Below, in pieces: positions 37,862 through 44,200 of a stretch of 64,000 bases of DNA. Under the pieces are notes generated by a model. The model saw only the letters and a program-made list of their open reading frames with translations. It made no database searches and was not told the origin of the DNA. Origin of the DNA: Waddliaceae bacterium (GTDB lineage: Bacteria > Chlamydiota > Chlamydiia > Chlamydiales > Waddliaceae). Location: positions 224,001 through 288,000 of the forward strand of contig CAVRUH010000005.1 in NCBI GenBank assembly GCA_963724325.1, in the 5' to 3' direction. The position numbers were made by a program, and so were the translations under genes. Each line of letters opens with the position of its first letter. Position 1 is the first letter of the stretch.

Positions 37862-38367
37862 AAATAACAATTCACAAAACTATAAAACCGTTGCAGCGCA
37901 GGCATAGGTATCGTAAACTTTCCTGCAAAAGGGAAACAGGATATGCAGGATCGCAAGCGGCAGGATATGAAGGATTATATGAAGATGATGTCAATTATTT
38001 TTTATTTTAAAGCAGGGTAAGAAGTTATATAAATCATTCATATCCTGCCGCTTGCGATCTTGCATATCCTGTTTTCCTTTTGCAGGAAGGTTAACAAGAT
38101 AGAGGTCATTGATACCTTGTAAACCTCCCTGCAAAAGGGAAACAGGATATGCAGGATCGCAAGCGGCAGGATATGAAGGATTATATGAAGATGATATCAA
38201 TTATTTTTTATTTTAAAGCAGGGTAAGAAGTTATATAAATCATTCATATCCTGCCGCTTGCGATCTTGCATATCCTGTTTTCCTTTTGCAGGAAGGTTTA
38301 CGATGCGTCTGCCTGCGCCTCCCTGCCGCTGCGCCTCTGCGTTTTTATAGTTCTGTGAATTGTTATT
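37862..38367. mobile_element. Nested MITE-like palindromic element: two tandem ~182-bp units inside outer inverted arms
   Basis: Units 37913-38094 and 38119-38301, each with ~55-bp terminal inverted repeats; outer arms AAATAACAATTCACA(A/G)AACTATAAAA at 37862 and, reverse-complemented, ending at 38367. Confidence 0.8.
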
Positions 38368-40042
38368 TTGACAGAGTGCTGGTGCTGGTGATGGTGACGG
38401 TGCCGGTGTCACCATTGACTTCGATGAGGTCCCCATCTTTAATGGCTACAGTAGCGTTATGAATCCCAAGAACAGCAGGAATCCCATATTCCCTTGCCAC
38501 GATAGCACAGTGGCAAAGAACCCCACCTATATTTGTAACAACAGCTTTAACAGCTCCAAAGAGCGGTGTCCAAACTGGAGATGTTGTTTTTGTTACAAGA
38601 ATGTCCCCTGGTTGAATTCTTTTAGCATCTTCGAGGTCCTTCACTATCCTTGCTGTACCACGTACAATGCCAGGTGAAGCTGCATTTCCAATTAATACAT
38701 GGGAATCTGCGGAGGGCTTTAATGGTCCACCAAAAAACTTTGTAATTCCCACATTTAACGAACTTTCTACGGGAAATGGCTCGGGCTCTGCCCCGATAAT
38801 AGAAGGTGGAGAAATCTTGGCAAAGTACTCCATTTCACTCTTTCGTTTTGAAATTTGAGGTCTAAGTTCCACTTCCGGCAATCTCTCGACTGCTTCAAGA
38901 ATCTCTTCCGGGAATAGATACAAAATTTCTTCTTCGTGATCTATTGCTTGAGCGAGAACAAATCGACGTCCAATTTCAAATAAGATTTTTCGCATGAGAT
39001 AAATCATACGCTGGTCTAAGACGTAATTATGATCCTCTTGCAATACAGAGGCAGTAACTGCGGCATCCAGTAGCATTTCGAATCGATTTCGGATCATAGC
39101 TGGGAAATTTTCAATTTTTTTACGTACCTGAGCTAGTTTCTGATCTCTTAGTTTTCTCGTTTCCTTTATGTGTTGACCGACATCGTGAGCTTCAGGCAAA
39201 AGGCAGTCCTGTATGTTTTTAATCGGCTTTTCTAAATCTTCAAGCCACGACTTATGGGTGAAATCAAGAGCTGTTTCGCAACGTTTTCCATGATTTTCTA
39301 ACACTTCTTGAATCTTCGCTAAATAGTCCCAACCGGCTTTTGACATTTGTAATGCCCCGACAATAGCTTCTGGAGGGTGCTTTCTTAAAACAAGCTCAAT
39401 ATTCTTATCCTTCATTGCTTCACGGCTTAATCTCCAAAATTCTATTTCCATTCGAGTGGTATCATCCTCAAAGCCCTCCAATAATTCAAGAGCCTCAAAA
39501 TCAGTAGCTTCTGGAAATAAGTCCTTATAAAATTCTTGAAATAAGCTCGGGGCAACCATCATCGGGACAACATTGATAAAATGAATTTCCCAGAGCTTGC
39601 GCATGCGCTCGATGGATTTAGAAAAGTGATTAATCAGTACTGTCATTGAGGAGGTTTTTAAGTTAATTTTCTCCATAAAATCTGTATGCTCAATGACTTG
39701 TGGTAAGAATTTATTATACCAATCATTTCGAAACGTGCTTAAAAATTGTTCTAATGCTTCCTCAGATTCCTGACTTTTTTCAGCGAATTCTTTGGGCGTA
39801 ACGGTAGGGTAGAGTGTCAGGTAGTAGTAGGTATTAAAGATTTTTACTTCGCATTTCAAAGGATATTTCAGGATTTTAAATGCCTGATTATACCCATGCG
39901 CCATGCTATCCCCTGAAAGTGATCTTGCCATAGGAGTGAATGGCACGGGGGCATGCATTTCGTCTTGTATCCATGACCTTGTTTTGTCTTCTGTCTTCTC
40001 CCATTGAATAGGAAAATTATCTGGTACTGAAATTTCCTTCAT
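38363..40042 (-). CDS. PEP-utilising enzyme: substrate-binding plus phospho-His swivel domain (phenylphosphate synthase A / Rph C-terminal-like)
   Basis: ASPGIVRGTARIV, GDILVT..TSPVWTPLF, GGVLCHCAIVAREYGIPAV; no ATP-grasp domain. Confidence 0.85.
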   Translation of the reverse strand: MKEISVPDNFPIQWEKTEDKTRSWIQDEMHAPVPFTPMARSLSGDSMAHGYNQAFKILKYPLKCEVKIFNTYYYLTLYPTVTPKEFAEKSQESEEALEQFLSTFRNDWYNKFLPQVIEHTDFMEKINLKTSSMTVLINHFSKSIERMRKLWEIHFINVVPMMVAPSLFQEFYKDLFPEATDFEALELLEGFEDDTTRMEIEFWRLSREAMKDKNIELVLRKHPPEAIVGALQMSKAGWDYLAKIQEVLENHGKRCETALDFTHKSWLEDLEKPIKNIQDCLLPEAHDVGQHIKETRKLRDQKLAQVRKKIENFPAMIRNRFEMLLDAAVTASVLQEDHNYVLDQRMIYLMRKILFEIGRRFVLAQAIDHEEEILYLFPEEILEAVERLPEVELRPQISKRKSEMEYFAKISPPSIIGAEPEPFPVESSLNVGITKFFGGPLKPSADSHVLIGNAASPGIVRGTARIVKDLEDAKRIQPGDILVTKTTSPVWTPLFGAVKAVVTNIGGVLCHCAIVAREYGIPAVLGIHNATVAIKDGDLIEVNGDTGTVTITSTSTLSK

Positions 40043-40164
40043 GAATCTCTCCTGACTTATATTATTATATTAATTTTTTTGAATATATAATGTCAAATTT
40101 TTTGTTTGTAAAAAAATGGAGAATATTTTAATTTAAAGTTATTGAAAAATACATGGAGTAAATC

Positions 40165-42523: not shown

Positions 42524-43129
42524 TTATTTGGATTGCTCAACTGGAGCTTCACCTTTTGGTGCTTGCTGTGCTTGTTGTGGAACTTGGCATACCACTTCAG
42601 TAATATCATTTTTAAAGAGCGTTTTCAGATTCTTTGGAACATCAAAACGTGAATCCTCAACAACCTTTATATCTCTTATCATGGTTGTGTCAATAGTTTC
42701 TACGTTTTCTTTGCTCTTATTTGATCTAAACGTTCCAGATAATACCCCGCCGTCTTTGATTTGAGTTCCAGTTTGATCTTCTCCCATCTTAACTGTAACT
42801 TCCTTCACAAGTTTTTCATTGGTTATAGAACCTCGTAGTACAGGTTTTCCGTCTTTGGTAAAACCAAATGCATAAGGTTCAACCGTAACTTGTTTTGTTG
42901 TAATCTTTATTTCTTTATCATTGACTTTTTCTTTGCTTATTATAATAAATTCCAATTTCTTTTGTTGTGAAATGGCACGGCAAATAGGATCATTTGTCAT
43001 TGCTCCACGATCGTTAAATCCTGCATTAAACTGGAAATCAAAAGGACCAACGGTTATTTCCATGGCCTGAAGACTTCCGTTGCAGAGTAGTAGTGCCGAA
43101 GCAACCACTAACAAATTTCTTTTTTTCAT
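42524..43129 (-). CDS. Exported protein with WYL-like signature
   Basis: SD AGGAGG; signal peptide; ICRAISQQKKLEF...VEPYAFG...GKPVLRG...IRDIKV...F. Confidence 0.65.
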   Translation of the reverse strand: MKKRNLLVVASALLLCNGSLQAMEITVGPFDFQFNAGFNDRGAMTNDPICRAISQQKKLEFIIISKEKVNDKEIKITTKQVTVEPYAFGFTKDGKPVLRGSITNEKLVKEVTVKMGEDQTGTQIKDGGVLSGTFRSNKSKENVETIDTTMIRDIKVVEDSRFDVPKNLKTLFKNDITEVVCQVPQQAQQAPKGEAPVEQSK

Positions 43130-43351
43130 AATAACCTCCTACTTTAATTCCAGCATACTTATTTATTTTAATGTATACTGGTAAATCTATCTAAGTAGTA
43201 TTTATCAAGCCTTCCTAAACTCATACTAATCATTTTAGAATTAAAAAGCTATTAAAAAAGTTAATATTTTTTGATTTTTGTGGTTTACGCACTATTTTAA
43301 GGCGTATCATGTTTATTATAAATAACTTATAAAAATTTTTGGCAAGATGCG

Positions 43352-44200
43352 TTACGTATGACCAGTAATTGGACGGCATTGTAAGAGGTATAACACTTCA
43401 TTGTGAATGGCGAGTTCGACATCTACAGGATATCCTTCATTTTCCTCGAGTTTTTTGATCATTTTTGAAACTTCAGCAAGTTGTGTCGGAGAAAATGAGG
43501 GCTTTTCCTGAAGAAAAGAGGGGACTTTCACATCTTTAGTTCCATCGTTACTCGGAATTGTCATCATTACTTTTTTATGAATATCCATTTCAATGATGGT
43601 TGCAACATTATTTTTATCGATGACGAAATGATCTGGGCTGACACTGCCATCTGCAATGGCTTTTCCCAAACCAAAATTTCCATTGATGACAATTTCATTT
43701 TTGCTTTTTGTGACAGGATTAATCGAGAATGCTACTGCAGATACATCTGAAGCAATACAGGCCTGTATCAAAACTGCAATATGAATATGTTCTAAATTTA
43801 ATTCATGTTTTTTTCGGTATTCCTTGACAACATCATCGTGAGAAGAGGCCCAGCACTTAACAATCGCGTTGAATAGCATTTCTTCGCCAATAATATTGAG
43901 AAAGGTGTCATGTTGTCCGGCAAAAGATACATTTGGTTTATCTTCATCTACAGCTGAGGAACGCACTGCAACTGAGGGATTCTTTACCCCCATAATTTGT
44001 CCTAGTTTGTGATAACTTTCGGCTATTTCTTTCTTTTCAGTATCATCTAATGCAGTATGTTTCGCTTCAATTTTGACGGAAGCTATACAAAATCCAGGGG
44101 GGACATTAAATTTTTCTTTGAGACGGCTGCAATTCGCTGCCTTGGGTCCTACCCTTTGTGGATCATTGCAATTTTCATCTCCTAACCAACGTATATCCAA
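43352..44200 (-). CDS. PEP/pyruvate-binding ATP-grasp domain protein (phenylphosphate synthase B / PEP synthase N-terminal-like)
   Basis: VGPKAAN, VPPGF, VAVRSSAVDED, SFAGQHDTFLN, DVELA, LLQCRPIT. Confidence 0.88.
   Translation of the reverse strand: MDIRWLGDENCNDPQRVGPKAANCSRLKEKFNVPPGFCIASVKIEAKHTALDDTEKKEIAESYHKLGQIMGVKNPSVAVRSSAVDEDKPNVSFAGQHDTFLNIIGEEMLFNAIVKCWASSHDDVVKEYRKKHELNLEHIHIAVLIQACIASDVSAVAFSINPVTKSKNEIVINGNFGLGKAIADGSVSPDHFVIDKNNVATIIEMDIHKKVMMTIPSNDGTKDVKVPSFLQEKPSFSPTQLAEVSKMIKKLEENEGYPVDVELAIHNEVLYLLQCRPITGHT

Follow-up and report, generated by a model that had tools for sequence, protein, structure and literature searches.

A predicted two-subunit RPH-fold dikinase beside RadH-type halogenases in a Waddliaceae bacterium, and its possible role in protection from a halophenol

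What would the two halves of a split dikinase phosphorylate when they lie among halogenase genes in a member of the Chlamydiota? The question is raised by a stretch of 64,000 nucleotides from a Waddliaceae bacterium (contig CAVRUH010000005.1, C5:224001-288000; hereafter the window), which belongs to a genome of 2.37 Mb that is 84.6% complete. One match to Hc1 and five to TLC nucleotide transporters in it suggest an environmental chlamydia, whereas PF03504, used as a host marker, gave no match either here or in the control. An initial annotation of this stretch described a dikinase resembling phenylphosphate synthase (PpsAB) or rifampin phosphotransferase (RPH, Rph), divided over two genes and proposed to be engaged in the phosphorylation and dephosphorylation of a (halo)phenol. 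The division itself is confirmed: the acceptor-binding half with its His swivel (subunit A, 38363..40042) and the ATP-grasp half (subunit B, 43352..44200) are separate genes on the minus strand, 3309 nt (~3.3 kb) apart. The explanation favored here, with a probability of roughly 0.5, is that A and B phosphorylate the cluster's own halophenol as a means of self-protection. In the open-access literature, no paper was found on a dikinase combined with a halogenase, nor on chlamydial halogenases.

Subunit A (559 amino acids, aa) combines an RPH-like acceptor-binding domain with a C-terminal His swivel (PF00391 at residues 476-547), and subunit B (282 aa) is a stand-alone ATP-grasp protein of the PPDK_N type (PF01326). 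The swivel motif T/S-xx-GG-xxx-H is present in A as T503-xxGGxxx-H511, and E336 corresponds to E667 of RPH. Two residues before His511, A carries Leu509 in place of the regulatory Thr of phosphoenolpyruvate (PEP) synthase. Residues K20, R80, T99, E262, Q274 and R276 of B correspond to K22, R117, T136, E297, Q309 and R311 of RPH, where K22, R117 and T136 have been described as implicated in the first half-reaction (PMC4844700). The structure model of A has a predicted local distance difference test score (pLDDT) of 93.9, and its entire chain aligns with RPH (Foldseek, 5FBT) at a template modelling (TM) score of 0.72 and ~20% identity. B retains 57 of 59 family-conserved columns and is the sole PF01326 match found in the genome; two other PF00391 matches lie on another contig. 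A Shine–Dalgarno-like sequence is found upstream of A and B as well as of the halogenase gene hal2 and the metallophosphoesterase gene that lie between them, and codon use of all four is host-like. A promoter scan was uninformative (32 sites observed, 34.9 expected).

The best 120 relatives of A are stand-alone proteins (533-598 aa, 33-40% identity), as are those of B (278-355 aa, 41-60% identity), and among the 25 top-listed loci, 15 have B immediately ahead of A, with order and strand as in the window. Being split is thus usual for proteins of this family and no local accident. Phylogenetic trees were built without partial and frameshifted open reading frames (ORFs); the tree of A additionally leaves out the long fusions with several acceptor modules (L058, L079 and L084) and rows shorter than 380 aa, and that of B is a quick tree. 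A has a sister clade of three sequences (P0002-4) supported by a Shimodaira–Hasegawa-like approximate likelihood ratio test (SH-aLRT) value of 99, and B groups with P0122-4 (98) and then with the outer sisters P0125, P0126 and P0243 (99). P0004 from the tree of A and P0243 from that of B both come from 3538-bp contigs, and are read as one neighboring gene pair. Together, the fold, the catalytic residues, the synteny and the agreeing trees lead to the conclusion that A and B are intact, cognate halves of one predicted two-subunit RPH-fold dikinase.

No close full-length relative of A was found among 60 related genomes, the best match being 26% identical within an 832-aa fused ORF, and the best match of B among 400 genomes stays below 40%. 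Because of this, acquisition of A and B from outside the phylum is likely, as judged from these comparisons. Other arrangements occur elsewhere in the family. Fusions of 1330-1430 aa join one ATP-grasp to two His-swivel domains (L047:6140-10162, L058:4355-8638, L069:5354-9355), so that a single ATP-grasp apparently serves two acceptor modules, and in L025 and L051 stand-alone acceptor genes stand in tandem.

To place A and B among characterised enzymes, proxies for the phenol kinases were chosen by operon context. The PpsA proxy is an Azoarcus locus adjoining phenylphosphate carboxylase, a Rhizobium proxy adjoins a biotin carboxylase and a HAD gene, and two Rhodococcus loci (L119/L120) have cytochrome P450, ferredoxin and HD-domain genes nearby and are presumably of the cre type. 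In topology tests on A (35 rows, quick LG+G4 tree, approximately unbiased (AU) test), a clade of A with three phenol-kinase proxies was rejected, both for A alone (p=3.7e-5) and for A with its sisters (p=0.0021). At the presumed acceptor site, A has a His signature (W24-D27-H30 / W151-H154 / E336-D337-H338) that is matched by 4 of 4 PpsA/CreH/AcvA proxies and by neither of two Rph proteins; this signature is derived from the present alignment and is not a published definition, and each proxy has Asn for Asp at one position. The data would allow a division of the family into proteins of His type and of Arg type (AU p=0.55), without demonstrating it. A and B would therefore work like PpsAB and HpeHI while lying outside the phenol-kinase clade, and the acceptor-site signature together with the RadH-type halogenases nearby makes a phenolic substrate plausible. 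Non-interaction of the subunits, which the initial annotation had named as a ground for refutation, would be a poor refutation of a two-subunit dikinase, since the characterised HpeHI is described as forming no stable complex (PMC12167813).

Three other identities have to be weighed against this placement. That A and B are a split rifamycin phosphotransferase is very improbable. RPH is the best solved relative, and a clade of A with Rph was not rejected (AU p=0.074, with long branches). However, Arg666-Glu667-Lys670 of RPH become Gln335-Glu336-Asn339 in A, identity to Rph reaches ~30% over the C-terminal 340 aa only, and the ~20% identity in the structural alignment compares with >42% described for the validated RPH clade (PMC4844700). 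With the NCBIfam model for Rph (NF041857), each half scores 157 bits where the cut-off is 999, and even the best NCBIfam model (PRK08296) gives 205 against 578 bits. Somewhat less remote, although still improbable, is a ligase like PigC or RedH, in which phosphorylation would activate a carbonyl or carboxyl group to condense two building blocks, for instance with the acyl carrier protein–ketoreductase–acyl carrier protein (ACP-KR-ACP) fragment encoded upstream. These enzymes belong to the same fold family, the RedH and PigC models do match weakly, and relatives of A are found within nonribosomal peptide synthetase (NRPS) and polyketide synthase (PKS) clusters (L021, L117). Each half scores 126-175 bits where the cut-offs lie at 1300-1350, A is matched only from about residue 200, and pyrrole-type genes are absent from the window. 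The least probable reading is that A and B are decayed PEP synthase fragments. In its favor, a search of this 84.6%-complete genome revealed no full PEP synthase, which many relatives do possess. It is contradicted by the trees and by the structure match of A: A has a 440-residue RPH-type domain that is absent from PEP synthase, which it matches only at residues 446-549, and B falls outside the PEP synthase clade with its family columns kept, many stand-alone relatives have the same lengths, and Leu509 replaces the regulatory Thr. The concern that one half might be such a fragment, raised in the initial annotation, can be set aside for both. What stands of its dikinase assignment is a pair of cognate RPH-fold subunits, and neither the phenylphosphate-synthase clade nor Rph. 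As a separate observation, L117 (NZ_CP032614.1) is an NRPS cluster on a Bacillus thuringiensis plasmid in which an adjacent split dikinase pair is found with a thioesterase-like gene and a phosphopantetheinyl transferase.

The strongest clue to function, overlooked in the initial annotation, is the operon in which relatives of A and B are conserved elsewhere. The order ATP-grasp, acceptor-swivel and DHA2-type major facilitator superfamily (MFS) pump recurs in L011-L019, L023, L025, L026, L030, L041, L042 and others, in hosts from Chloroflexota, Actinomycetota (L023 being Nonomuraea antri), Gemmatimonadota and Deinococcota. One MFS family lies directly downstream of the pair in 17 of 25 top-listed loci and in 23 of the 67 loci with at least 1.2 kb of downstream sequence (75 of 76 loci of A relatives were scored, L048 being left out, and 7 of the 23 served to build the profile). 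Seven of these pumps that were checked share 40-66% identity; their best NCBIfam model is the DHA2 efflux model TIGR00711, with 160-234 bits at a cut-off of 230, which one exceeds. In L035 a DrrA-like ATP-binding cassette transporter gene takes the place of the MFS pump, and within the same phylum one genome (G253) has a distant split pair followed by a DHA2 pump. Since an MFS pump usually follows the pair, a detoxification ancestry, and hence a role in detoxification, is suggested for the clade. The DHA2-type pump of this clade was not found in the present, 84.6%-complete genome. Of 20 close A loci, 2 have a phosphoesterase- or phosphatase-like gene nearby, in neither case related to the phosphoesterase of the window, of which no relative was found in the 76 loci of A relatives.

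In the window, the neighborhood of A and B is biosynthetic. The flavin-dependent halogenase gene hal2 (40165..41631, plus strand) is divergent from A across a 122-nt spacer and is of the RadH type: RadH (PDB 8GU0) is its best solved relative (E 1.4e-86), the motifs GxGxxG and WxWxIP are kept, and the catalytic K77 and D313 correspond to K74 and D325 of RadH. Its paralogue hal1 (35135..36589, plus strand) is 64% identical and has the same catalytic motifs. RadH is described as requiring a free phenol hydroxyl group and as halogenating ortho to it (PMC5637929). Upstream lie genes that could lead from chorismate to a halophenol, which the initial annotation also overlooked. A 194-aa protein with a predicted chorismate-lyase/UTRA fold (33257..33841, plus strand; DUF98 AF1396, E 6e-5, TM 0.54) is a candidate source of 4-hydroxybenzoate on the basis of this modelled fold, to which an atlas search added a weak lead. 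It is followed on the same strand by a flavin adenine dinucleotide (FAD) monooxygenase (33929..35131), whose best solved relatives include tropone 2-monooxygenase, 6-hydroxynicotinate 3-monooxygenase and decarboxylating vanillate and 4-hydroxybenzoate hydroxylases, by hal1, and by a CPA2 cation/H+ antiporter (36586..37842) that overlaps hal1 by 4 nt, the gaps in this run being 87, 3 and -4 nt. Divergent from the 33257 gene, at 77 nt, is a shikimate operon on the minus strand (24858..33179; aroC, aroD/E, aroK/B, aroA and 3-deoxy-D-arabino-heptulosonate 7-phosphate (DAHP) synthase), led by the ACP-KR-ACP polyketide fragment. P450 genes are located at 49951 and 57082, at least 5.7 kb away and each behind its own partner gene.

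There are indications that these genes belong together. The closest non-self relatives of B, P0123 (60%) and P0124 (54%), are assigned to the same 2,918,952-bp record as the halogenase P0398, which is 65% identical to hal2 and 71% to hal1; this shared record suggests that halogenase and B recur together elsewhere. When 356 genomes of the phylum were scored, no second genome with close relatives of B and the halogenases turned up. In a 97%-complete genome of the same genus, no match was obtained to A, B, the halogenases, the phosphoesterase or the 33257 gene, a joint absence from which it follows that these genes come and go together. That genome does keep the aro operon, and 40 kb inspected in it are without these genes, bar a weak monooxygenase match ~30 kb away. 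Separately, in another family of the phylum (f37), 5 of the 8 genomes carry a solitary halogenase-like gene (33-36% identical to hal2) surrounded by housekeeping genes (loci L105-L109; G131, G132, G141, G216, G373).

The gap between A and B is less tidy than first described. As the initial annotation had seen, hal2 overlaps a calcineurin-like metallophosphoesterase gene on the strand opposite to A and B (41621..42472, plus strand), by 11 nt, and its metal-ligand motifs are intact. Besides these two, the gap holds a third gene (42524..43129, minus strand) that encodes a 201-aa protein of host lineage with a signal-peptide-like start; relatives were found in 6 of 60 related genomes, and an atlas search gave no usable match. 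It is probably a bystander unrelated to the dikinase, and its presence makes the bracket a mosaic instead of a clean two-gene insert. Next to A, at 37913-38301, a palindromic repeat of 2 x 183 nt resembles repetitive extragenic palindromes or miniature inverted-repeat transposable elements (REP/MITE) and has at least dozens of copies on contig C1; considered as a border of the locus, it was rejected, as the element is genome-wide.

The relatives of the phosphoesterase point to a different origin. In the 61 closest of 80 metagenome loci, a sugar transferase lies directly upstream in 45 of the 48 with room, a PylC-like ATP-grasp directly downstream in 39 of 46 and at least one of these two partners in 56 of 61, although the search patterns favor this polysaccharide subfamily, many of the sequences are related marine ones and relatives of >50% identity would be hidden by clustering. 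Epimerase, aminotransferase and glycosyltransferase genes are found in these loci as well, and a relative of the dikinase or of the halogenases in none of the 80. The PylC-like partner was not found in the present genome, a search of 280 further genomes from the phylum recovered no member of the subfamily, and the phosphoesterase of the window has diverged at 3 of the 32 columns of its subfamily. Judged from these comparisons, the phosphoesterase has moved from its usual context and become coupled to hal2, which allows its recruitment but does not show it. A crude hydropathy window revealed no hydrophobic N-terminal stretch or signal-peptide-like start, so that kinase and phosphatase would share one compartment and would need separation in time. 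In their own right, the cassettes of sugar transferase, metallophosphoesterase, PylC-like ATP-grasp, epimerase and DegT aminotransferase (L126-L186) are a recurrent feature of marine surface-polysaccharide loci.

When these elements are combined, the following sequence of events can be proposed for self-protection by A and B. The 33257 gene product would convert chorismate to 4-hydroxybenzoate, which ortho-halogenation by hal1 and hal2 and decarboxylative hydroxylation by the 33929 gene product would turn into a halophenol or halohydroquinone. B would bind ATP, and His511 of A would take the β-phosphate in a transient contact; AMP and Pi would be released and the swivel would move to the E336 site, by analogy with RPH and HpeHI. 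O-phosphorylation would remove the free hydroxyl group, stop further halogenation and trap the compound in an inert, impermeant form. The module itself was probably acquired horizontally as a B-A-efflux detoxification operon, from which the pump would have been lost before or while further insertions separated the remaining genes. In a last and weak step, the phosphoesterase coupled to hal2 may release the free phenol again. This step is doubtful: for the dephosphorylation arm of the cycle proposed in the initial annotation, the evidence is the 11-nt overlap in one genome, and the context of the phosphoesterase relatives, in polysaccharide loci and never beside a dikinase or halogenase, speaks against an eraser. 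The most elaborate version is an activated defense whose genes come from three unrelated sources. An intracellular chlamydia relative would derive a halogenated phenol or hydroquinone from chorismate and keep it in store in the form of an aryl phosphate, by means of a dikinase taken from a widespread kinase-efflux detoxification operon, until a phosphoesterase taken from a polysaccharide locus releases it. This version is rather unlikely.

Several observations weigh against self-protection from an own halophenol. The layout is seen in one genome only, and with a host-lineage gene in the gap and a genome-wide repeat adjoining A, adjacency in this mosaic region may be due to chance. The 76 loci of A relatives, 936 kb in all, yielded no halogenase relative, and no dikinase was found near the distant halogenases (33-36%) of five other-family genomes of the phylum (14-20 kb each). 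The 2.9-Mb record has no A relative among the best 120 matches. The His signature is common to most split relatives, the NRPS-linked one included, and does not specify phenol. Of 82 columns conserved in the family, A retains 74, close to the lowest value observed (median 81, minimum 73). A chorismate lyase is suggested by fold alone, as the 33257 gene does not match PF04345 or give any Pfam hit; its relatives are unlinked to these genes in the 10 inspected of 18 genomes, and the four full-length aligned relatives carry a signal-peptide-like extension. A flavin reductase was not found in the window, and one lies on another contig.

Two other roles for A and B account for part of these observations. 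They might be a free-standing kinase for detoxification or scavenging of a compound from outside, made by a host or a competitor, with the halogenases as chance neighbors in a rearranged accessory region. This is unlikely, though less so than any other competing account, as the usual B-A-MFS operon of the family is without biosynthetic genes, halogenases are missing from the A loci, an unrelated gene of host lineage lies in the gap and the gene surroundings from which the phosphoesterase derives are different ones. Against chance speak the record that holds the nearest relatives of both B and the halogenase, the joint absence from the same-genus genome and the divergent 122-nt spacer between A and hal2. 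Alternatively, the phosphate might be an obligatory handle: A and B would phosphorylate a pathway phenol for another enzyme (the P450 at 49951 or 57082, or the oxygenase), and the phosphoesterase would unmask the hydroxyl group for hal2. By analogy, this would be a biosynthetic version of the install-modify-remove logic of CreHI or AcvAB/AcvF, and comes closest to the cycle of the initial annotation. Loci L119/L120 do combine a P450, a dikinase pair and an HD-domain protein, which we take to be a cre-type arrangement. The characterised two-subunit relatives are all described as following this logic (PMC12167813; bioRxiv 2022.04.28.489975), the need of RadH for a free hydroxyl group (PMC5637929) would explain a phosphatase coupled to hal2, and the phosphoesterase has intact metal ligands and has drifted from its subfamily. 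The handle is nevertheless the less probable of the two roles, given the sugar transferase and PylC-like neighbors of the phosphoesterase relatives, the scarcity of phosphatase-like genes near close A loci, the lack of a carboxylase in the window, and the distance of the P450s with their own partner genes.

If self-protection is the right explanation, a halometabolite pathway would exist in a likely chlamydial symbiont. Beyond this genome, the A/B clade suggests that Chloroflexota, Actinomycetota and others have an unrecognised detoxification module in which a compound is phosphorylated and then exported. Whereas the characterised two-subunit dikinases all initiate aromatic catabolism, this clade is large, uncharacterised and partnered with efflux, and its copy among phenol-halogenating genes leads to a short, purchasable list of candidate substrates.

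Some further features of the genome deserve mention. The P450s of 47899-51306 and 55743-58437 are 69% identical, and each is preceded by a protein with cyclic nucleotide monophosphate (cNMP)-binding and BFD [2Fe-2S] domains; the first of these is also fused to an FAD reductase domain. This would be an unusual redox partner, possibly gated by cyclic nucleotides. The ACP-KR-ACP fragment (31164-33179) lies 12 nt upstream of DAHP synthase, and on visual inspection the motifs of its KR and its C-terminal ACP seem degenerate; a type I PKS of 2017 aa is encoded at C1:617873-623926. Bacillithiol genes are located in 44862-46151 and 51360-53175, with bshC and bshA above the NCBIfam cut-offs and a bshB1-like gene just below; bshA is also present in 4 of 5 family relatives, and bshC lies between two DUF4760 paralogues. 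Encoded at 53622-55616 is a cNMP-domain protein that weakly matches an HExxH intramembrane protease, and at 60951-61790 a protein with an otubain (Peptidase C65) domain, possibly a host-directed effector.

How does this locus compare to known systems? With the fungal phenol halogenase RadH, hal2 shares K74 and D325, but where RadH has F328, both hal1 and hal2 have Leu, as do the four relatives closest to them, so that the pocket of hal1 and hal2 differs from that of RadH. The bmp and ambigol clusters are chorismate-derived halophenol clusters of comparable content. In a marine bacterium, a chorismate lyase, a halogenase and a P450 are described as yielding a bromophenol dimer (PMC10579414), and as in that 4-BP cluster, a chorismate lyase (here fold-level), a flavin halogenase and a P450 are found in one region. 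Compared to such halophenol clusters, the halogenases of the window are of the RadH type, an oxygenase resembling decarboxylating hydroxylases, the dikinase pair and the phosphoesterase are extra, and their bearer is probably a relative of chlamydiae that lives inside cells. A kinase and a calcineurin-like phosphoesterase in the biosynthetic cluster of a symbiont are also known for the protoxin phosphocalyculin (CalQ and CalL; PMC8637855). CalL is described there as having a signal peptide and being periplasmic, apart from the kinase CalQ, whereas the phosphoesterase of the window has no signal-peptide-like start and belongs to the polysaccharide-locus subfamily, the likeness being one of description.

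RPH from Listeria (PDB 5FBT, 5HV1) resembles the present pair in the whole-length fold of A, the ATP-grasp residues, the catalytic Glu and His and the logic of inactivation by phosphorylation. It is one chain, however, whereas A and B are split, lack Arg666 and Lys670 and fall far below the Rph family cut-off. Two-component dikinases are already known as PpsAB, CreHI and HpeHI (PMC12167813) and likewise AcvAB (bioRxiv 2022.04.28.489975; PMC12624787). With PpsAB from Thauera, CreHI from Corynebacterium, HpeHI from Rhodococcus and AcvAB from Sphingobium, A and B have the split and the swivel motif in common, and A also the acceptor signature W-x2-D-x2-H, W-x2-H, E-[DN]-H. HpeH, CreH and PpsA are described as mutually ~45% identical (PMC12167813), and the phenol-kinase proxies share 43-45% with the PpsA proxy, whereas A is 25% identical to the four of them. 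A and B are also smaller (559/282 aa against ~610/355-380 aa), A has Leu instead of Met two residues before the swivel His, and the genes are not adjacent (3309 nt), unlike in phenol-kinase operons. No carboxylase, HAD or HD gene of the kind found in those catabolic operons is present among the 49 proteins of the window. Instead, the neighbors of A and B are biosynthetic halogenases, and the usual partner of their clade is an efflux pump, which sets it apart from the phenol-kinase clade.

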